In this document: piece by piece, positions 17,661-32,716 of the stretch
Layout: each line of letters begins with the position of its first letter
How positions within the stretch are numbered: the first letter of the stretch is position 1
NCBI GenBank assembly: GCA_010015805.1
Contig: ML978129.1
Span: forward strand, 1,612,001 to 1,676,000
Direction of reading: 5' to 3'
DNA from: Rhizodiscina lignyota
Lineage: Eukaryota
DNA: 64,000 nt
Made by a program: the position numbers and the translations under genes
Notes under the pieces: generated by a model
What the model saw: only the letters and a program-made list of their open reading frames with translations
What the model was told of the DNA's origin: nothing
Databases searched by the model: none

Positions 17661-17949
17661 GAGGCTTGGAAACCTGGACTGTGTTTAAAACAGCAGTTCT
17701 GTTCACCTTATTCAAAAGATGATAACTCTTTCCCTCGATTCTTACTAGGCAATCCTTTTCGGCTCTACTTTAAAGACCACTGTTCGCCCTCTACTCCGCG
17801 GCATTTTTGAATGCCTTGACTGTTAAGCGATGTGGCGCCCAGCGTTGCATGCAGCGGCACAGCAACAGTTCGGGGCTTTGGCGGCCGTGTATTCCTGTCG
17901 GATTGTTTCCGATTCAAGCGGTCAACTTACCGTGGCAGGGCCTGTTAAA

Positions 17950-18460: not shown

Positions 18461-19296
18461 ATCCAAAGTGCGCCGAGTAGAGGCGCCACTCGTGCCGACA
18501 CCAGGCCCCCAGTAACCATATTTGAACTCGCTTTACTTCGTCTGGAATAGCCAGCTGTGTAGCAGGTAAGAGCCATGTCGAATCCGGGATCTCATCTGAC
18601 AGGATGCGCCGTATCATCCGTCTATTCTGAGGTTGGGCGGCCGGCGACAGCAAAGGCGAGAAGGAGACTACAGAAAAGTGTACGGGAGAAGGAATCGGGA
18701 GTTGACTTGACTTATATCTTACTACCCTAGCTCCCTAAGCCGCATGCCGCGTGGATCCAAAGTACCCAAGTATGGAGTTCGGTCGTCTCCTCTTGGGCTT
18801 AGTCACGGGGATGGCTCGGAGCTCGGACGGCATCGTGGCCAAGAAAAGGCTCGACAGGGGCCCCTTCTTAGCTGCAGCCGCTCCACGCCTCTTCCAACCA
18901 CCATTCAGCTTGTGCCATTCCATACCCCGCGCTCTGCATGAGATGACGAGTGATCGGTGAGGGGCTATCCTGGAGACAATGTGCCTCCGCGTGAACAAGC
19001 TACGCCTTACCACTCCACAACTTACCGCGTCCGAAAAGCACTGCGCGTGCACGGCTACTGACGGCGGCGAGGGAATTGGAATCTAATCGGCTAGTAACTG
19101 TCTAGGGAGGCAATACATAGTTGTATATAACGACCACCTCTGTCCTCTGCTCGATTTCAAATTCCTTGGAGACGAAGCGTTTACCCTTTGCCTCTCTTCC
19201 ACCGCTTCCGCAGATCATATTCCTTGACTTTGTTTCTCACTCTGCTATTAGTGTTAACACGAGGCCTTTCCCATTCCGCGCGACTAACCCACCGCC

Positions 19297-20923
19297 ATGT
19301 TTCTCGAAAATTTCCTTACGCCTTGGACATTGGCCGCTCTTCCTGTCCTATTCTTCCTCCTTCCATACCTCCGCAACTGGTCCATCAGAGATATCCCTGC
19401 ACCATTCCCAGCAGCATGGACAAATCTATGGCTTTTGTATCAATGCCGTCGTGGAAGGCGATATCTAGAAGTCGACGCAGCACATAAGAAATATGGAAAG
19501 CTTGTCCGGATCCAGCCGCATCACATCTCAATTGCAGATGACAAGGCAATTCCAATTATCTACGGGCACGGTAATGGATTCCTGAAGAGGTACACCAAGC
19601 TTGCACACGCCAGTCATATCGAAGAATTCCGTTATGCTAATGCTACATCTAGTGAATACTATGATGCCTTCGTCTCTATCCGCCGTGGCCTCTTCAACAC
19701 TCGAGATCGTGCCGAGCACACTCGCAAGCGCAAGACCGTCTCACACACATTCAGCGCCAAATCCATCGGCCAATTCGAACAGTATATGCACGCAAATTTG
19801 GAGCAGCTGGTTACACAATGGGACCGGCTCTCTTCTACAGCTCCACACAATAGCTATGCCAAGATGGACGGCCTGCACTGGTTCAATTATCTGGCGTTCG
19901 ATATCATCGGAGACCTTGCTTTCGGTGCGCCGTTCGGCATGCTCGAGAAAGGCAAAGATATTGCCGAAGTACGAATGACACCCGATTCTCCACCAAAATA
20001 TGCACCCGCTATTGAGGTCTTGAATCGCAGAGGCGAGGTCAGCGGCACGGTAGGATGCATGCCACAGATCAAGCCTTACGCGAAGTACTTTCCCGATCCG
20101 TTCTTCAGCAAGGGCATCAAGGCCGTGGAGAACTTGGCGGGTATTGCGGTAGCCAGAGTAAATCATCGTCTTGCGAATGCTGATAAGATTGACCGTGTGG
20201 ATCTCCTCGCGCGATTGATGGAAGGTCGGGATGAGAAGGGCGAGAAATTGGGAAGGGAAGAGTTGACCGCCGAAGCGCTCACGCAGTTGATCGCTGGAAG
20301 CGACACCACGAGCAACACATCATGTGCGATCTTGTTCTACGTCTTGAAGAACCCGCACGTCCTTCCAAAGCTACAGAAAGAGCTCGACGACGCATTACCG
20401 GACAGTGCGGTTCCAACTTTTAACCAGGTTAAGGATCTGCCATAGTAAGTTTCATTATTTTTGTGGTTAACTGCAGTACTCTGAAAACTCCCACAGCCTA
20501 GACGCCGTCATCAAAGAAACCATGCGTATCCATTCGACCTCCTCTCTCGGCCTTCCGCGCGTCGTTCCACCCGGGCCCGGAATAACGATCCAAAACCATC
20601 ACTTCCCACAAGGCATTGTACTATCCGTTCCATCCTACACTATCCATCACAGCAAGGAAATCTGGGGCGCGGACGCCGATGAGTTCCGGCCAGAGCGTTT
20701 CCTTGACCTTACTGAGCGGCAGAAGGAGGCATTCATTCCATTCAGCCACGGGCCTCGTGCGTGCGTAGGCAGGAATGTTGCGGAGATGGAACTGGCGCTG
20801 ATCGTGAGCATCACATTTAGACGGTACGAGTTTGAGCTTTACCAAGACCAGATGGAGACGAGGGAAGGCTTTTTGAGGAAGCCGTTGGGATTGATGGTGG
20901 GTATTCGCAAGAGGAGTGTTTGA
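19297..20923 (+). CDS. CYP53A: Cytochrome P450 CYP53, benzoate 4-monooxygenase (bphA/bzuA-like)
   Basis: [54 protein letters not shown], heme motif [10 protein letters not shown] and TREGFLRKP. Introns at 19590..19652 and about 20445..20497. Confidence 0.95.
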
Positions 20924-21091: not shown

Positions 21092-22211
21092 CTATCTATT
21101 ATACTGCGAAGTTGGCCTCGTGCCCTGCAGAACTTGACCAACTTCATCCCATACCCTCTTCTGCCACTTCAGGGCCAGATCGCTTTCGACTAGCTTTCCG
21201 GGCCTTAAAAGCCTTGTCAGCATTCATCTATTCTTATAAGATACGGTAGTGCGCTTACGCCTCAATAGCATCATTATGAATCCACTTCCCATGGCCTTCT
21301 TCTTCCAAGCATGTCGCATAGACCAGCGTCCTGCTCCCCTCTTCTGTGGTCTTGCATATCGTCGCCTGCAACACCCATAGAACAAAACTCTTGACCCAAC
21401 TCGTGTGCCACTCCCTCGCAAGCTCGGACTTGCACGCACCGGGGCAGCTGTAGTTCACAACGACCTCCGGTCTCCCGCCCTCATCTATTGACAGCGATGT
21501 TGCAATTTCACGCACACAGTAGATGAGAAACAGTTTTGAGATCCCATAGCGCTGGGAAGTGCCATCGAACGTTTCGGGCTTGTTCAGAGCAGCCAACCAG
21601 TTAAGTTCTCGTTGCCATGGGCCGTTTTGTTTGACATGCTAGTATGCACGCGAGGCTAAGAACTCAAGCTTGGGTATCCATTCATCTCCAGTATCACTCT
21701 TCCTCCGCGACGCGCGAAGTTTCGGGAGGATAAGCTGCGCGCGAAGGATATTGGAGAGGGTGTTAACCTGTAGCGTCTCTTCCCAGCCATCGTCGGTAAA
21801 GCTGAAGCACGTTTTGCTAACAGCGGCATTGAGGACAGCAATATCAAGAGAGTCCAGTTCTTTCAAGACCCTTTCTACAAAGGTGTAGACAGAAGCAAAG
21901 GAGGCAAGATCCAGTTCCCAGACTTCAATGGTAGTACCCTTGGCATCTTCGTGCTTGCTGCTCGTGCTCGGCTGCAGGCTGTCTTCGATATTCTGTTTCG
22001 CGGTCTCGCCTTTCCGTAGTGGCCGGACACCAAGGATAATTCGAGTGGCCCCAAGGCGTGCATAGTGCCGTGCGGCTTCGAGACCAAGACCTGTGCTTGC
22101 GCCGGTGACCAGCACGGTCCGACCTGCTATGCTTCGTGGCGTGAGATAATCGAGAGATGGGGCGGACCAGCGGTTCCGGAGGAAACCCCAAAGGACATGC
22201 AAGCTTGACAT
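21092..22211 (-). pseudogene. Short-chain dehydrogenase/reductase (retinol-DH-like) interrupted by an in-frame TAG
   Basis: TGASTGLG, WELDLASF, LNAA and YGISK motifs. ORFs 21639..22298 and 21255..21596 share one frame and are separated only by TAG at 21639-21641. Confidence 0.8.
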
Positions 22212-22714
22212 TTGATGTGGACAATAGGAGACGTGTTTGAGATTGCTACAAAGTAGGGACTGAGAGTTGAAAGAGATAAGAAACCTAAAGTTCCCCAAGG
22301 TTATTAGAACCCAAGCTCTATATACTTACCTCTGAGCCATATCGCAAATTTACAAGTCTATCGGAGGTCTTGTTGCTCCGAGTGGGTATATCTAAGTTTG
22401 ACATACAATTGAGGCCTGCAGAGCTTGCGAAGATTTAAGGCGCAAGTTAAGCTTTTCCGTATTAGGTTAGTCTTGTAAGCAGTCTGCAGATGTTGGCCCA
22501 AGCTGTTTTCGTCTCCTTCTCTACTCCACTGCCCGGAACTAAAGCTTCTCCTTTAGATGCCAAAATGGAAGCTGAGGTTCTTGGAATCCTTATTGCGGCC
22601 TTGGTAAGGTCTTGGCTTGTAAGCATGCGGCATATATCAGGTCGAACTCGCCCGGTGTAAGCGCTCTGCATGTAGACGTCGTTGTCTCATTCATCCGGGG
22701 AGAATCAAGCCACA

Positions 22715-23794
22715 ATGTCCGGTACCGAAACGGTTCAGATTGGTGAAATGAGCCAGTTGGCGGAGGTAATCTCTTGAATACATGCAGGACTCTAGTTGCC
22801 GTCATTGACGCACTCACTAGGCTACCAGCGCGAGAGATGACTGGACGGGCATTGCAGACGTTAAAGAGAGGAGAAAGAGGCAGAATCGTTTGAATGTGAG
22901 AGCTCATCGTAAGTATCTATGAGCCTCATATTTCACACTTTGTTGCATAGCACGACTAAAGAATTTGACAGGACGGCGTAAGGCGTTAGTAGCTGAAGCC
23001 TCAAAATCGCATGCAACGCAGACGTGCCCACAACAGAGCACCACAACGTCGGAGCATGCTATTATGCATCCCCCTTCCCACTGCCCAAATGCCGGAACTC
23101 CGATTCGGTCACGCTCTGCAGTGATCAGAATTGAGGATCGTCTCGCTTCGCTCTGCTACCCGATATCTGCAGACCACAAGCTTATCACTTTGATAGCCCT
23201 TAATGTCTCTCGCGCGGTCCTGACGAACTATGGCATCTTGTCTAATGCGCAATGGCATTTCCCAGCTTCGTACTCTTGTTGTTCCGAGAGGCTGTCTCCA
23301 ATGCCACCGCCTCCGAAGACGTTAGCACCTGTCCCAAAAGCATTGGAATCCACGAGCTTGCAGCAATGCATTCCACACCCGAGCTGGATTGACATCTTTC
23401 CATTTCCACAATTTAGGGACAATGTATTGATTGCAATTGCGGAGATGGGGCTAAACCCGTTAGAGCTCGCAACAGATCTCATCGGAATTATATTCGACTG
23501 GATGGACTGCGAAATGTCTGTGCGACCGAAGGCCAGAACTTTGAAGGCACATCATCTGTTGACAGCACTTCACTTAGCACAACTCCTCTGGATGATGCCG
23601 CTGTGGATATCTCTAAGCCAGAGACCCTCGGAGTCGTGGCCTGGACGGATCCATGGGAAATTGCTGGCTGGGAGCTCACAGAGGATTTCGTCACCAAATG
23701 GTCGTTCTTGTTTGTCGGCTGTGCAGAAGTACTTAGTGCGACGAATGCGTGGAGAAGCAAAAGAGGCGAGGAGCCATTAGTCATCCATTGTTGA
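22715..23794 (+). CDS. bZIP-like/DUF3425 fungal regulator; C-terminus needs a weak intron or a frameshift
   Basis: DDWTGIADVKERRKRQNRLNVRAHRRRK, HPSWIDIFPFPQFRDN and WTDPWEIAGWELTEDFVTKWSFL..TNAWRSKRGE. The last motif is in a different frame from ORF 22965..23780. Confidence 0.8.
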
Positions 23795-23916: not shown

Positions 23917-26499
23917 CTAGTTGACGGTCATTTTCGGTACGCGGCGGCTGGAGCTTGTTGGCCTGTCCTCATCATCGGACGTTGGCGCGCTCTCGACATG
24001 CGGCTGTGGATAGGCACCTGGGCTTGGACTGACTGAAGATTTCCCGGTACGAACCGATGTCGAACTTCTACCTGAACTGACCCCTTGAGAAGGGCCCAAA
24101 GATGCTCCTCGCTGGTGCCGAGGCGTCCGCGCGCGAAGATGAGACGTACCAGTCCCACCACTGCGAGCGAACCCCGCTGGAGGAGGGACAGCCATAGCAT
24201 TATGCGAAGTTGCACTCTTCGAGTTCAGCGTTTGTTGGCGTTGGCATGTCTGCAATCCCGCTTTCAGTTTCTCAAGCTTCGACTCCAATTCAGCACGCTT
24301 CACACCGACTTCGTCCGACTCAGAACCAAGAAGGTCTATAGTTTCATCGTCCATTTCGAGAACGACAGTTGAAGCGAAGATTCCCGTCAGGCCTTCGAGG
24401 AGAGCGTTCTCTATCAAGAGTGCCGCTACGTTGTCAATGAATGTGCGCAGTGACACCTGGAGAGGTCAATATGTCTGTCAATATGGTGTGACACGAAAAT
24501 CACCTACCTCATAATATTGCCACATGTTACACAGAACCCGGTCCAAAACGCTCGTCGGCTCCTCGTACCTGTATGTGTCGCACCACAGGGTCACCATTTT
24601 CTGCTCTCTTCGCCATTCGTATGAAGGATTGAACGTAATGGCCACTGAAGATTTATGAGGCTTCAGAATCTCTTCAAGTTTAACCAAAAGAGCGGCAAGC
24701 TTCCCTTGCATCGCTGGATTGACATGCTCCCTAAGGATCGCAGCTGCACATGCTCTATCCGCAATGCTGTTTATTACGTCGTCAAGGAATCCCCGGCATG
24801 CTTCCCAGACGATTTTCACAAAAGCTTCGGCAATTTGCTCCCAATGGACGGATTGCCTTCGGAATAGGTGGCCAATCGCGAGTGGATTATAGTCTCCAGG
24901 AAGCTCACAGCCACCAGTAGCTTCGATGGAAGCCTGCACCACCTTGTCCATTTCCTTGTCGCTTATTATTTTTCTTGACATTTGAAAAGTTACCTTTTTT
25001 TGATATCGGTCAATTGGCAAGAGCTTTCGATTGTTCAACTCACAAACGCCACTGTCGCATGTATGTCCGAATCGTTCCATGACGTTGACGAAGGCTAACT
25101 CCAGCTCCTTGATTTTTGCTCGCAGCCCTGGCCGTGTCACTTCAAGCGACGTAAAAATTGAATCTCGTTCTGTGTCTTGATCAAAGAATGGGTGATCGCA
25201 AGTTCCGCTTACACCGGCTCTGACAATAAGCGGAAAGCTTTCGGCGATCTGCATGAGGTACATTCTTTTTTCTGCCATGGCCGATCTAGCAGTGCCGAGA
25301 ATCTTGACTTCGGAATCTGATTTGATAATCTCGGCTTGAATATCCGCAATAACGCCACCCAGAGATTCACATATCTTCTTGTGGAGGATCTTTCGTAGTC
25401 GTTCCCGCAAACTAATGATCCCCACGTGCCCATGGGGAAGGTCAGACCAAGGAGCCTTGTCGAAGAATTTGTGCTCGATATGGTCGCGTTCTGTAGATGG
25501 GCAGTTGCGCGTCTGGCGTTGATTGTCAGTGACGTTCCTAGCTTCTGATTTACTACGCTCACATTATAGTCTCTGTTGCGCAACATATGCCACCCAAGAG
25601 TGAAAATGAGTGGAGCCTTTTGATTCTTGGCAAGAGCGAGGATTTCCTTCTGAGCGTCCGAGCCATCATACGTCAGATCCGGCTTCGTTATGACCCCAAG
25701 AGTTCGCTCGCCTTTCTCGTCTATCTCGCGAGCCCAGGTGAGGATAACTTGAGTCGCAGCGTCATTACTCGCGGGTATGACCGCTAGAATAATACTTCGC
25801 GAGTTCCGCATGTACGATTGCACGAGCTGGCTAACAGTCTGGATATCTTCCGCAGTTTGTCCTCCGGTTTGCGCATGAATGATACCTGGAAGGTCTACCA
25901 TGGAGAGCGTGGGCCCATCGGGACGGTATACAGTCAACCTAAGAACATCTCGAAAGAAGATTGCAGGCCCAGATTGGGAGGAGAGTGCCATTTGTTCTTT
26001 TGCCGAGTCAATGATTGAAGGCAGTTCTTCAAGATCCACTGAATCTTGCTTGAACTCGTCGAATCGTTCTTTGTCCGACACTGACCTATCATCGTGCGCA
26101 ATAATAGCAACTGAAGCCGACGGCATGTCCGATCTCCGAAGAATGACTTCCGTTGCGAACGTGGTGCAGAGAAGGTCCGCAGTTGGGAATTTGACTCCGG
26201 AAATGGCTTCGAGAACCGAGCTCTTGCCAGATGATTGGTCGCCGACCACAACAATCTGCGGTAACTCAATGTGATCACCCACACCTAGAAACCGAAGTTC
26301 ATCAATAAGGTCGAGTAGCTTGCCCTGCTCCTTGTCCGATAGTTGGTCCAATATGGTCACTCCCTCCACCTCCGGTTCCTCTGGTGCAAGAGGAGTTGAT
26401 GTCCCACGGCTCTACTCAACCATAGGTAAGTAAATCGAAGGAATAGCGCTAGCAAATATTACTCACCCCGCTAAGAGAGAAAGAATTCAGTCCGTGCAT
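23917..26499 (-). CDS. Mx-like dynamin-family GTPase A (GTPase-middle-GED, no PH domain, S/P/R-rich tail)
   Basis: LPQIVVVGDQSSGKSSVLEAIS, CTTFATE, DLPG, TKPD and GED FIDNVA. Introns at 26412..26466, 25513..25562 and about 24458..24508 give a continuous frame. Confidence 0.9.
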
Positions 26500-27200
26500 T
26501 ATTCTATCCACCATTGTAAGGAGTATTGGTACAGATATATCTGGACCGAAATGAAGGAAGTTTAGAGGATTTCGACTTTCTCAGAGAAATTTGAAGAATT
26601 CACACAGTAAATTTGTGTGGCAATTTGTTCCCAGACTGAAAAGTAAACTATTTCGTAGTACTTACCATCACACCGCCGTCTTTGCTGGCTTTATCAAGAC
26701 TTTCTCACCAGCTAGCCACTGCCCACAGTGACCACAAATCAGACCGCGTATGTTACGTGCAATCTTGAGCCATCCTCCATTCTCTAGCATATAGTGCTTC
26801 TAAAGCGTCTCGCGTTAGAGGTATTTCGAGAGACTTAGAAACATCTGCTAGAAGTTCAATGGACATCAGAATCTGGACGTCAGCCATGAACGTTGCTAGC
26901 GCTGTGGAAAATTCCAAGGAAAGGACAGTTCAAGATGGATGAGTAGACTTTTGTGAAACAATGTGTACTACAAATATTAGGTTTCAAAAGCAAGTATGGG
27001 TGCTCCATCCAATCGACTGTTGCCCAAAGTGTCTTATCTGCATCACTTGGAGCACGCAATGACAGATAAGTTAGTGACGCAATTCCAGACGCGGCGATGC
27101 CTCTTGATAAAGGATTGTTCGAGTCGCTTCAGGGATTTACATCTAAGTTTGTAAAATTTGCCCTCCACGCTGCTGGACGTGCTGTTCGTATGTCCAGTGA

Positions 27201-27343
27201 CATGCTCAACTGTTGCTGTGCCGCACAAGGGGTCGCGACTCCAACCAGGTCTTTGTGGCATGGCGTCAACGTCTGTTTCAGGAGTTAGGAATCAGCATCT
27301 CTCTCGAACATTGCAAGGAAGGAGATACGATGGAAAGCGATGC
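27201..27343. repeat. Conserved non-coding element upstream of dynamin A (copy 1)
   Basis: CTGTTGCTGTGCCGCACAAGGGGTCG at 27210-27235 is identical to 31172-31197. 27260-27281 matches 31225-31246 at 20/22 positions. Confidence 0.85.
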
Positions 27344-27898
27344 GACTTTAGATGAGAATGTGATACTTCTCCTAGATAGGCTATGTATCGCGGTTAGAGG
27401 AGTGCAGCGTGACACCCCTTATAAGCCATAATGATGAGGTGAGACAGTATTATGAATGGTGCTTCTGAATGGTGGAGAACAGCAAGAAGGTTTGGAAGCC
27501 AACCGCTGCCAGAAGCTCTGGGCTTAAACGGCAATTCGGCCCCCATATGAATTGTGCCACGCCAAAATTGATTTCATTGATCAATGTGATATCGTAATTC
27601 ATCAAATACACAATCTTGGCATATCTACCAAATGCACTGGATTTTTGAATTCCATCAGTCGACATGAACCGCCGCTTCAATGATTTACCCAAAGGTTTGG
27701 AGAGCGACCCATCAAAGACACGCAGCTCAACCACTCAGACATTTGGGCTTCATGAAGCCTGTTTCAGCTACGTAAGTTGCCAGCACCTAAAGAAATACAA
27801 AGAGACATAACCGGTCATGAGATCACAAGGAGATCCATCATCAAACCTCGCCACCTTTTTTCCTCTGTAGCGGACATTGGTTGCCTGCCTTCTAGGCC

Positions 27899-30513
27899 CT
27901 ACTTCTTGTGCAGAGTGAATGAAGGCGGACTCAAAAGTTCTTGCTGTTTCCCCTCCTGACTTCCTGTCGTAGATCCATACGAGGTCATTGACGATGAGGA
28001 AGACGTTGACTCCGGAGAACTGTCGTCAACGTTGTGTGCTGACACTACACTTACGGTACTTCGAGTGGGCGAAGAATCCTGTGGCCTCGCATGAGGTGTT
28101 CTGGCAGGCGTTTCCGGAGTAAAATCATCTCCAAAATGAAGGTTGTTTAGGCTTGAGTCAAGATCATCGATTCCGAGGTGATGTCTAATCTGCGCTGTAT
28201 CTGATGAGACATTACTCGGCGATCGCTCTCCTGGGCGGGTTCGGGCTGAACAAGTACTTCAGCTCGTCTGCATCAGAGTCAAGGAGTTCTCTGTACTCAC
28301 CAGATACTGGTCGGTGTTTCCAAGGTTTGAAGAGTTCCAAAGCTGCGTCAAGATCTTTGATCTCTGCTTCCAGTTCCGCGCGCTTCTTGACGGTGCTCTC
28401 TGCCTCGGAGACAATGCTTGCTACTGTCTCAGGATCCATAGGGTATACAGTCTCTGGAGTGAAGATCTCCGGTAGATCATTCAGCAATGTCTCGTTTATT
28501 ACGAGAAAAGCAACGTTGTCGACAAACTGCAGGATTACGTGCTGTGAATCGGTCAGCGGAACGCCCCTGACGGTCGAGATCTTTGGACTCACTTTATAGT
28601 ATTCAAGCATACAATCAATAATATCGATACGAGTCGTTAGTTCGACATCATATTCCTCTTTCATCCAGCCCAGCGACGACAGTTGTGCCGCATTCTCGGC
28701 CGCAGCAATGCGCTCCTTATTCTTCTCGAACGCGGCGCTCATGACTCTGCTTCGCCTCTCTCCCTGTTTCGTAGCGACGATTACATCAAAAAAGGGGCTG
28801 TAAGTTACCATATGTGCTTTCTCGAAGGGTGCAATAACGAGCTCGAAGGTTTTCCACATGGCGGGCTTTCTTCTGCGGAGTTTTTCATTGAGGAGATAGT
28901 CGCAAAGCGCATTGTTCAGCTCAGCATCTGCACCTGTGACGTCTTTGGCCAACAATCTGATCCAATCTTCGATAGTCTCAAAAACAAGCTCGAGGTGCTC
29001 TTTGGCCAGCCGCCTCCAAGGTTGGCTTTGGTGGCGGAAGAGACCTTGGATAACAGCAGGATTGATAGTACCGCTGGGTTCGTTTGCGTGACTTACGTCA
29101 ATGAATTTTCGAACAAGTTCCAGGAATTCTTCAGTGAAGATTGGTTGAGGCGTCGCATCGTCCCCAGAACGTGGGCCAGCCGTTGCAGGTCGAGAGTCGC
29201 AGATCTCCCACCGGTGGCCATGTTCATGCATTCGTCTTGAGAATTCGTTGTTCAATTTTCGGACAATTGCACTTATTTGCCGAGGGTCGACTTCTTCAAG
29301 CGATACAGGATACTTGTCTAGTTTGCAACTTCCGTCTATGAGCCTCTCAATAAGCCGCGAGAACTTGAAACTGAGGCCGATCAAGAATTCCTTGGGATCT
29401 TCTGGTCGTGGAGGCCCAAGATTGTCCTTCTCTGCCTGCTTTGCGTCACGGAGAGTCCGAACATCGTTCTTGACGCCATCATGCGCTTGCAGGATCTTTT
29501 GGTAGAGTTTGTAGCTAAGTCGTGATCGAAGGGCTGCAGCACCAACGTGCTCTTTTGGAATTGCCGCCCAATCACCATGGGAGAAGAACCGGTCTTCTTC
29601 TTTATCTCTCTCGGCGGCCGAGAGCTTCTCTTGCTGTTTATAGCTTAGTACGCGCTCCTCACTCAATTGTGGAATCGCTTACCCCAGAACCTCTATTCTT
29701 CAGCACATGCCATTCCTGTTTATATCGTGGATTCGTTCCCTTTGCGAAAGAGATATAAGTGTCTTTGCAAGCCTCGTCATTTGTTGCATCGGGTTTTGTG
29801 ATCACCCCAAACGTGCGACGACATTCTGGGTCAGCCCTTTCCGCAATCTCCAATGCCGCTTGACAGTAGCGCTCGTATGCCGCGGAGACGATTGTCATGA
29901 TGATGGCCTGAGGATTAGAGACATATTTCTTGACCAGGCTGTTCACAATTTCCTTGTCGTTTGACTCGATGTTGTCTGTTGATTGAATCAGGCCTGGAAG
30001 GTCTACGAGATCCAGTGGGGGAGTGTCTGGGCCAGAGATCTCCACATGAAGGGTATGGTCTGAAAAGATGGACATTTCAGGGGTGCGTTTCTCTTTGATG
30101 TACTGTTTTGCCTTCTCGATACATTCAGGAACTTGCTCAGGGGATGAGCAAGAGGCGCGGAATTTTTTCATGGCCTCAGCCACCTCTGGGGTGCTTTGTT
30201 CCCCAGGCACAATGGAGACGGACCCTCTCCAGGCTGGCTCGGTGCGCATAATCAGCTCTGTCGCGAAGGTTGTGCATGTTCCAGGCTTTGACGGGAAGCG
30301 AATCCGAGATATTGCATCCAGGACAGAGCTTTTACCAGATGACTGATCGCCAACGACAACCAGTTGGGGAAGGTCGATGTCGCGAAGCTTAAGCCCTTTA
30401 AGGGTCTTGATTGTGTCAAGAAGTTCTCGCTGCTCGTCGTTTTGGAGTTGCTGAAGTGCCTCCTGACTGGAAGTGTCAGCAACAGAAGCATTCTCTTTGT
30501 TATTGGCGGCCAT
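27899..30513 (-). CDS. Mx-like dynamin-family GTPase B (GTPase-middle-GED, Ser-rich tail)
   Basis: LPQLVVVGDQSSGKSSVLDAIS, CTTFATE, DLPG, TKPD, LKNR and GED FVDNVA. Introns near 29633-29681, 28543-28593 and 28201-28301; last exon inferred. Confidence 0.88.
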
Positions 30514-31162
30514 TATGTAGATTGACAATAAATGATTCGCTTCAGAATAAGGGAAAGATTAAAGGTTGACAGCTTTGAGGAAAGATGTTCGAAGAGATAG
30601 GGAGATGAAGTCAATATATCCTGTATATATTGTTCTGAAGTTTTCTTATCTGTGTACTTCTCTTCTGTTTTTATAACTTCAGATCCTCGAAGTAACTGCT
30701 TCGTTCCGAGGCTCGACATCCGGAGTCTAATCTTAGCTCCGCTTCGATGTGCGCCAGAATCTCTAACATGACCTGAGGTACATCAGGCGGCCCCATGGAT
30801 TGAAATGGTGGTCGCAAGGGGCATCATTTGGTCGTTGAGTGAACTTGATGTGAAGGATTCTGTTGGTCAATTGGTAAGACACTATCACGCGCGTTCTACA
30901 CGAATGGACGCGCGAAGACGAATGAGATACCAACATATCAACCATAAATGTGGTACCTAGGCGCCCGAGGCACTAAGCGCTTGATAAAAGTGTGTGGCGT
31001 GTATCGTCATGCGGCGATCTGCCACAAATGTGGAAACGGACCGAGGGCTTCGTGCTCAAGAACCCAGGACGTTGGGCTCACTGCTTCGCTGAATTGTATT
31101 GAGGCATTATTTTGGGTTGCCAGGAACCATACAGTTGGAACTTGATCGTGAGAATGTAGTGC

Positions 31163-31311
31163 CATGGCGAGCTGTTGCTGTGCCGCACAAGGGGTCGAGA
31201 CAGATGCCTCCGGGGCTTCGCGGGATGGCGTCGACATCTGTTTCAGCCTTTCCAAAGGCAAGGATGCCTCTTCATCTATTGCCAACGGGAAGAGATGTTT
31301 GGAAACGATGC
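31163..31311. repeat. Conserved non-coding element upstream of dynamin B (copy 2)
   Basis: Direct-repeat homologue of 27201..27343, same orientation relative to its dynamin gene. Confidence 0.85.
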
Positions 31312-31702: not shown

Positions 31703-32716
31703 ATGGCCGTTAACGGGCAAGAGGAGGATTTTTGGTTATTCGGGTACGGGTATGTACAGATGTACCAATTTGCAGTTACCGAATCTCTTCGTACTAAGCA
31801 TGTTTCAGGTCACTGATATGGAAGCCCCCTCCACACTTTGGTTTGTCTATGTCTTATTGATTTTACTGCTATATGTTCACACTTCCAGATATTCGCCTAC
31901 CGGGTTACATAGAAGGATACGTGCGCCGATTCTGGCAGGTAAGCACCCGCTGCCGTATCGACGAATGATGACCGACGCTCTGTTCTAGGCTAGGTTAGAG
32001 ATATCTCATGATATCGAGTTCCTTTTTGACTAACTACCGGATAGTGAGGATCATCGCGGTACTCCCGAAGGCATGCTACTAACTCCCACATAACTTTGAC
32101 ATGACTGATGGACATGAATTGCAGCTCCTGGACGTGTCGTCACGCTCATCGATCTCGAACACTGGAGAACTCTTACAGATCACGTATGTTAAACTCTGGC
32201 TCATCCTCATATTCCCTCTGGGCTCAACTTTCTCAGCATGTCTCAGCACCAGAGCGAGTATGGGGTGCAGCCTACCACATCCCGCCTGAGCACGTGTCGG
32301 AGGTGCGAGACTACCTCGACATCCGGGAGATCAACGGCTACAGCATTCAATACACGCCATTTCACCGCTCGGACTTAACACACGAGACTCTGAACTGTCT
32401 GGTCTACATCGGACTTCCATCAAACCCACAGTTCCTCGGCCCTCAGGATCCGGATGCATTGGCACGGCACATTCTCAAGAGCAAGGGCCCAAGCGGAGAG
32501 AACAAGGAATATCTCTACATGCTTGAGGAAGCACTTGAGGGACTCAGCAGCGAGAGTGGTGATGAGCACATCAGTGATTTGGCGAGGAGGTGTAAGGCGC
32601 TGGAGACAAAGGGATATGCTGGACCCGGACACGCTGACGGGGATCAGCCATCGCACAGTGAGCACTTGCACAAGGTTGGGAGCACAGAAGAGCAAGAAGA
32701 AGTAGAAAAGGTGTGA
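31703..32716 (+). CDS. ChaC-family glutathione-specific gamma-glutamylcyclotransferase (Gcg1-like)
   Basis: Spliced product [64 protein letters not shown]. Seven exons, including a 5-nt microexon. Confidence 0.92.

Follow-up and report, generated by a model that had tools for sequence, protein, structure and literature searches.

The analyzed window is a stretch of 64,000 nucleotides (nt) from Rhizodiscina lignyota (contig ML978129.1, positions 1,612,001 to 1,676,000 of the forward strand), and it carries two neighboring dynamin genes, here called A and B. Both genes lie on the minus strand, co-oriented and head to tail, with A at 27899/28212–30513 (two alternative 3′ ends) and B at 23917–26514 of the window. 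A and B belong to the Mx-like dynamins of fungi that Langley et al. 2025 (PMC11789081) called MxF, judging from the ranking of solved protein chains for both sequences and from the predicted fold for A. The two genes are probably paralogous members of this family that came to stand side by side through an old tandem duplication. Both copies would have diverged strongly since, and they would now act independently or in sub-functionalised roles. The locus adds members to an already described family and is not a new kind of system or principle.

At the level of sequence, both A and B were shown to keep what a working dynamin-type GTPase would need, namely the G1–G4 motifs, the bundle signalling element (BSE) and a helical stalk. 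The locus is a compact test case for the antiviral proposal made for MxF, with two intact and very diverged paralogues next to each other.

Gene structure and shared architecture of A and B

Exon 1 of gene A (29683..30513, minus strand) starts at ATG 30513–30511 and encodes the N-terminal BSE helix and the G domain in 277 codons. It matched the Pfam model Dynamin_N at 1.7e-27, is followed by a GTAAGC donor after 29683, and is the same in the public model P0001. Exon 2 (28593..29633, minus strand) encodes the middle domain, which forms the stalk, and matched Dynamin_M at 5.4e-14. It lies between a CAG acceptor before 29633 and a GTGAGT donor after 28593 and agrees with P0001. The next intron (28592–28542) is 51 nt long and in-frame, and it is also spliced out in P0001. 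Exon 3 (28301..28541, minus strand) encodes the GED part, with the last stalk helix and a BSE helix (helices 607–644 and 672–693 in the structural model).

Two versions of the 3′ end of gene A were considered. The public model P0001 (733 amino acids, aa) reads through after exon 3 to a stop at 28212–28214. In the alternative model, a 100-nt GT-AG intron with a GTGAGT donor at 28300 and a CAG acceptor at 28201 leads into a possible exon 4 (27899..28200, minus strand). This exon is absent from the public model. Its frame is open to TAG 27899–27901, it would encode a Ser/Thr/Pro-rich tail of 100 codons, and it extends the protein to 804 aa.

The four-exon model of gene B gives a protein of 813 aa. 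Its predicted first exon (26467..26514, minus strand) is 48 nt long, provides 16 codons with the sole in-frame ATG upstream of the P-loop, and is joined to the rest by a 55-nt intron flanked by a GTGAGT donor and a TAG acceptor. Exon 2 (25563..26411, minus strand) encodes the G domain, with a Dynamin_N match of 6.5e-34 and a GTGAGC donor after 25563. Exon 3 (24508..25512, minus strand) encodes the middle domain or stalk, with a Dynamin_M match of 5.6e-14. Exon 4 (23917..24456, minus strand) follows a GTAGGT...CAG intron at 24507–24457, ends at the stop 23917–23919, and encodes the GED part, 36% identical to that of A, together with a Ser/Pro/Arg/Gly-rich tail. The public model of B, P0004, has 607 aa, is marked 'partial' and has no start. 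The first exon is missing from it, and it also lacks the GED exon because it runs into the third intron. Exon 1 of B and exon 4 of A are putative. All introns of the two models are GT-AG, and neither frame contains an internal stop.

The architecture of the two proteins was compared. The GDQSSGKS, DLPG and TKPD motifs were present in both A and B, and G1 (GxxxxGKS), the G2 Thr, G3 (DxxG) and G4 (T/NKxD) were invariant columns in a 25-row alignment that included them. No match to the Pfam PH domain was found in either protein, none to the Pfam GED model at E ≤ 0.01, and no transmembrane part or other membrane-binding insert was seen. Low-complexity, disordered C-terminal tails extend about 100 residues past the GED part, in A on the putative exon 4. 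Between the stop of A and the ATG of B lie 1,384 nt if A has four exons, or 1,697 nt if it ends as in the public model.

A and B share 30% identity over 699 columns (280 bits). The G domain is the best conserved region at 38% identity, followed by the GED exon (36%), the stalk exon (27%) and the tails (19%). The pairwise alignment shows that A and B have two introns at exactly matching places, each of them in phase 0. The first lies three residues past the NR motif (KNRGSG|QEK in A, RNRDYN|TRN in B), and the second follows YYK in A and YYE in B. The initial annotation had described two co-oriented, intact dynamin GTPases about 1.4 kb apart, with the same architecture and introns at equivalent positions, and these descriptions were confirmed. 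Its statement that the middle domains are very divergent held in part: the stalk is the least conserved of the folded parts, but not dramatically so.

Assignment to the Mx-like family and possible function

When solved chains were ranked by sequence, every Mx1/Mx2 chain stood above all other dynamins, for A as well as for B. The best Mx match reached 1.2e-29 for A and 1.4e-33 for B, against 2.1e-19 (Drp1) and 4.8e-26 (Vps1) for the best non-Mx match. The Vps1 structure 6def scored 9.6e-18 for A and 4.8e-26 for B, and the Mgm1 structure 6ql4 scored 2.1e-15 and 5.2e-25, respectively. A was modelled with AlphaFold from an alignment of 50 rows, and the model displayed a G domain, the helices of the BSE and an extended helical stalk at a confidence score (pLDDT) of 85.9. 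It contained no beta-sandwich insert, only a short beta hairpin (419–443). A Foldseek search with this model placed MxB (5uot and 4whj) on top, followed by dynamin 1, Drp1 and MxA, all over about 690 columns. The view that the pair is Mx-like and distinct from Vps1, Dnm1 and Mgm1 was therefore upheld by the ranking for both proteins and by the top fold for A.

The likeness to animal MxA/Mx1 and MxB/Mx2 covers the top sequence matches for A and B, the top fold for A, the domain order and the intact GTPase motifs. However, the identity to A in the structural alignment is only about 20%, and Mx proteins are not known to have a post-GED tail of about 100 residues such as A and B carry. Fungi are not known to have an interferon system. 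Compared with classical dynamin, A and B lack the PH domain between the middle domain and GED, and their low-complexity tails sit at the position where dynamin has its proline-rich domain (PRD). The fungal proteins Vps1, Dnm1 and Mgm1 are also members of the dynamin superfamily and have the G-domain fold and a stalk in common with A and B, but for both genes they score below Mx. Unlike A and B, they are single-copy and conserved in most fungi, according to PMC11789081.

Relatives were numerous in the databases. At E ≤ 1e-10, the G domain of B found relatives in 5049 of 7998 scored candidates, and A found them in 2645 of 7998. An HMMER search over 1.84 billion representatives returned 6524 proteins at E ≤ 0.001, 3308 of them at E ≤ 1e-10. 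The named matches were Pezizomycotina proteins labeled 'Interferon-induced GTP-binding protein Mx', 'dynamin GTPase' or 'dynamin family protein', and the relatives included proteins of A. fumigatus, Neurospora, Beauveria and many Dothideomycetes. As described in PMC11789081, MxF consists of two old clades, MxF1 and MxF2, and shows 'extreme dynamism in copy number', with five copies in A. fumigatus and none in yeast. A and B resemble this family in having a G domain, BSE and stalk without a PH domain and MxA/MxB as the nearest solved relatives. Furthermore, the family is multi-copy in Pezizomycotina with a variable number (PMC11789081). A and B differ from it in being unusually diverged, with no more than 38% full-length identity to anything found, and in standing in tandem. 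The word 'tandem' did not occur in the main text of PMC11789081.

By analogy with MxA, MxB and the dynamins, A and B would each assemble through the stalk into oligomers, and their G domains would dimerise and hydrolyse GTP around a target. The most likely target would be a non-self or parasitic element, for example a mycovirus, and not a housekeeping membrane. Both genes may stand under one common regulatory input, and they would not form an obligate two-part machine. A defence role directed at a mycovirus or another non-self element is a tentative assignment, which we hold to be nearly an even prospect. It is proposed because of the turnover of the family, the argument in PMC11789081, and a lead from A. 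flavus that may concern an MxF gene. In that lead (PMC10372822), the 'dynamin GTPase' AFLA_042270, a candidate MxF, was among the genes commonly changed under partitivirus infection. The P-loop NTPase AFLA_042300, located near AFLA_042270, was also among the commonly changed genes (PMC10372822).

Literature searches were also performed. No paper joining 'Interferon-induced GTP-binding protein Mx' with a mycovirus was found. For MxF, fungi and antiviral, PMC11789081 alone was relevant among the matches listed, and a search for dynamin with heterokaryon incompatibility gave nothing on the MxF family among the matches listed. MxA and MxB divide tasks in mammals, and the A–B pair could show whether fungal Mx-like paralogues do the same.

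A and B could instead be ordinary membrane-remodelling dynamins that serve the organelle or vesicle dynamics of filamentous growth, with no immune role and with tails that recruit partners as the dynamin PRD does. The full dynamin architecture, the intact GTPase motifs and the position of the tails are consistent with such a role. In the Foldseek search, dynamin 1 and Drp1 filaments came close behind MxB and had higher TM-scores (0.60 for 7ax3_A versus 0.43 for MxB 5uot). However, neither protein carries a PH domain, a transmembrane part or another membrane-binding insert. Both are very diverged, with 33–38% identity to their best full-length relatives, and the gain and loss of the family (PMC11789081) is unlike the behavior of single-copy Vps1, Dnm1 and Mgm1. 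The A. flavus lead, if it concerns an MxF, would count against this role as well. A non-immune membrane role is judged unlikely.

Origin of the pair and the shared upstream block

The best full-length relatives of A displayed 33–37% identity (Neofusicoccum P0124, Glonium P0059 and Patellaria P0128), and those of B displayed 34–38% (Bogoriella P0235, P0253, P0289 and P0135). The only closer relative found was P0230, a fragment of 283 aa that shares 63% identity with A and 41% with B, which shows that the A type is not confined to this locus.

In total, 86 loci encoding relatives were collected, consisting of the 80 nearest metagenome relatives (L001–L080) and 6 loci from prokaryote-labelled records. 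Thirty of the 86 loci are at least 15 kb long. A G domain was present in 83 loci, and 3 loci contained two, all of them among the 30 longer ones. The three double loci represent two distinct pairs. L015 carries a co-oriented dynamin pair with 47% identity. In L008 and L040, one and the same divergent pair occurs (40% identity), and its contig bears a third copy at a distance of about 13 kb. No conserved pairing of an A-type with a B-type gene was seen among the 86 loci; the pairs are other paralogue combinations. Diverged neighboring paralogues recur in varied combinations and orientations, and the adjacency of A and B is thus the expected trace of tandem duplication in a family of high turnover.

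A double dynamin was also found in Lachnellula suecica. The protein P0005 (1430 aa) contains two complete dynamin units (about 1–671 and 700–1427) that are close paralogues, and in the tree both units group in a single clade of 6 rows (support 1.0). Either the fusion is genuine or the annotation has joined two tandem genes.

None of the 80 nearest metagenome relatives has introns, and their genes span about 620–690 codons; A and B have three or four exons. The two introns common to A and B are missing from all 80, in which the matches are unbroken. The open reading frame (ORF) density of the 86 fetched loci ranged from 0.19 to 0.68, compared with 0.49 for the window, and their G+C content was fungus-like. 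In a scan of 185,579 prokaryote species, 6 loci with relatives were found, all in metagenome-assembled genome (MAG) or draft records. Mx-like dynamins were carried by L081, L083 and L085, all from the 6.65-Mb record OZ255840.1, which bears the title of a Lapillicoccus MAG, and by L082 (an Acidobacteriota MAG). These four loci, which were long enough for a composition analysis, had a G+C content of 0.46–0.50 and a long-ORF density of 0.28–0.44. The records are probably fungal sequence filed as bacterial MAGs, because both values match the fungal window and are unlike those of bacteria. A prokaryote origin of the intronless relatives of 620–660 aa was rejected on the basis of the fungus-like ORF density and the occurrence of only 6 such loci, all in MAG or draft records.

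The upstream regions of A and B share one significant match, a block of 89 nt with 79% identity (E 3e-16). The copy before B lies at 27196..27281, which is 682–767 nt upstream of the B ATG, and is listed under repeat families D1 and D2, with its core at 27211–27235. The copy before A lies at 31158..31246, 645–733 nt upstream of the A ATG. The core of 25 nt is identical in both copies, for which 0 matches are expected by chance, and the same perfect palindrome of 11 nt occurs in both (31179–31189 in the copy before A). Neutral DNA would be saturated at 30% protein identity, so the block has either been constrained in both copies or been copied recently between them.

The nature of the block was analyzed further. 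In one plus-strand frame of the core, 6 of 7 differing codons are synonymous and the indel is 3 nt long. A frame on the minus strand does almost as well, and a conserved start is absent from both frames. Rfam gave no match between 23000 and 32000 at E ≤ 1, and no tRNA was found in the window. The block copies displayed no stable fold better than shuffles (z-scores 0.99, −1.37, 0.47 and −0.59). None of the 86 fetched loci contained a copy, and in the window no further copy was found except for a 17-nt exact piece of the core. This piece lies at 17854–17870 on the opposite strand (E 0.001) and may be due to chance. Among the contigs of one DNA run, probably that of the source assembly, searched at 80% likeness, copies occurred in the source contig alone, which is a weak test for a 90-nt repeat. 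The block may represent a regulatory element, a very short coding sequence or a stretch spread by conversion, and it is most simply read as a shared regulatory element. It is compatible with co-regulation of A and B, and this single, sharply conserved block offers a possible handle on their regulation.

Several points weigh against an old tandem duplication followed by independent or sub-functionalised roles. Both gene models are partly inferred, with the start of B, the last exon of A and the GED exon of B not in the public models. The 89-nt block exceeds what independent paralogues would be expected to keep and fits co-regulation, as the two-component reading predicts too. The antiviral role argued for MxF in PMC11789081 is a proposal in print and not an experimental fact.

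The trees provide further points of this kind. They hold only relatives of A and B. The FastTree set contained 360 rows; it was taken from 356 of 368 non-replaced database proteins, 12 having been dropped for a length outside 560–1000 aa, with P0001 and P0004 swapped for the spliced models and P0005 split in two. In the FastTree result, the clade that holds A has 13 rows (0.88), the clade that holds B has 4 (0.98), and their common ancestor spans 69 rows. In an IQ-TREE quick tree under the posterior mean site frequency (PMSF) mixture model, built from 51 rows of those clades, A and B stood beside different 12-row clades with weak support (77 and 15). The end branches of both are long (1.0–2.4), with A the longest in every tree (1.2–2.4), and a sister relationship of A and B may thus reflect long-branch attraction.

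A careful search under LG+G4 recovered (A,(B,P0235,P0253,P0289)), with the five-member group supported at 53/82 and the four-member group that includes B at 95/68. In an approximately unbiased (AU) test under LG+G4, holding A and B together gave a log-likelihood 32.5 above that of the free quick tree, with p-AU 0.913. The LG+G4 model is more prone to long-branch attraction than the PMSF mixture model. The sisterhood of A and B is not settled by these trees, but an old local duplication is not rejected by the data and is mildly favored. The adjacency of A and B and their two shared introns speak for it as well.

The initial annotation had proposed that A and B act together as a two-component system. 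Such a module would be co-regulated through a shared upstream element and would form hetero-oligomers, either mixed stalk filaments or G-G heterodimers, in antiviral or non-self defence, like some bacterial dynamin-like protein (DLP) pairs. A and B are adjacent, co-oriented and both intact, the 89-nt block lies at a nearly equal distance upstream of both ATGs despite the 30% protein identity, and a fused double dynamin is present in Lachnellula. However, pairs are uncommon (found in 3 of 86 loci, or in 3 of 30 when only those of 15 kb or more are counted, and making up 2 distinct pairs), and the other pairs are different paralogue combinations with 40–47% identity in both orientations. In Lachnellula, recent duplicates may simply have been merged into one gene model, and the block could be a small coding or mobile piece, given its 6 of 7 synonymous core codons. 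Beyond adjacency and the shared block, nothing was found for joint action, and adjacent paralogues recur in other combinations. A true two-component module is considered improbable.

The full form of this proposal is slightly less probable still. In it, the palindrome block would be the response element of one pathway that senses non-self or virus, the stalks would co-assemble, and one paralogue would recognise the target and the other would drive assembly or GTPase activity. If true, the hetero-oligomeric A–B module would parallel, in a eukaryote, the paired dynamin-like defence proteins of bacteria. In the bacterial pairs (Campylobacter DLP1/DLP2 and Bacillus DynA), two dynamin-type GTPases are encoded side by side or fused, and a defence role has been proposed for them. 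A and B are likewise two dynamin-type GTPases encoded side by side. However, the bacterial proteins are only distantly related to A and B, and the A–B pairing is known from adjacency alone. The analogy drawn with these pairs has no common ancestry of the pairing behind it. Langley et al. report having found no orthologues of Mx-like genes in bacteria (PMC11789081).

It is very unlikely that one copy is decaying or non-functional and that its intactness is a gene-model artefact: the public model of B is partial and its start needs the predicted 16-codon exon, A has the longest end branch, and decay does occur in the region because the adjacent short-chain dehydrogenase/reductase (SDR) gene has an in-frame stop, but the frames of A (804 codons) and B (813 codons) are uninterrupted and their introns are canonical GT-AG, all G1–G4 residues are kept in both, the model of A is confident, and the A type is kept elsewhere, in the fragment P0230. 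Old tandem duplication within MxF, with two intact copies, is the preferred reading.

Genes next to the pair

Beyond the 3′ end of B, the SDR gene lies at 21255–22325 on the minus strand. It contains an in-frame TAG at 21639–21641, between the Rossmann part and the YxxxK part, and no plausible intron was seen around this codon. The description of a decaying SDR locus next to the pair therefore looks right. A cytochrome P450 gene is located at 19288–20923 and a ChaC gene at 32105–32716. A DUF3425 gene (22923–23780, plus strand; Pfam 3.1e-09) converges on the 3′ end of B.

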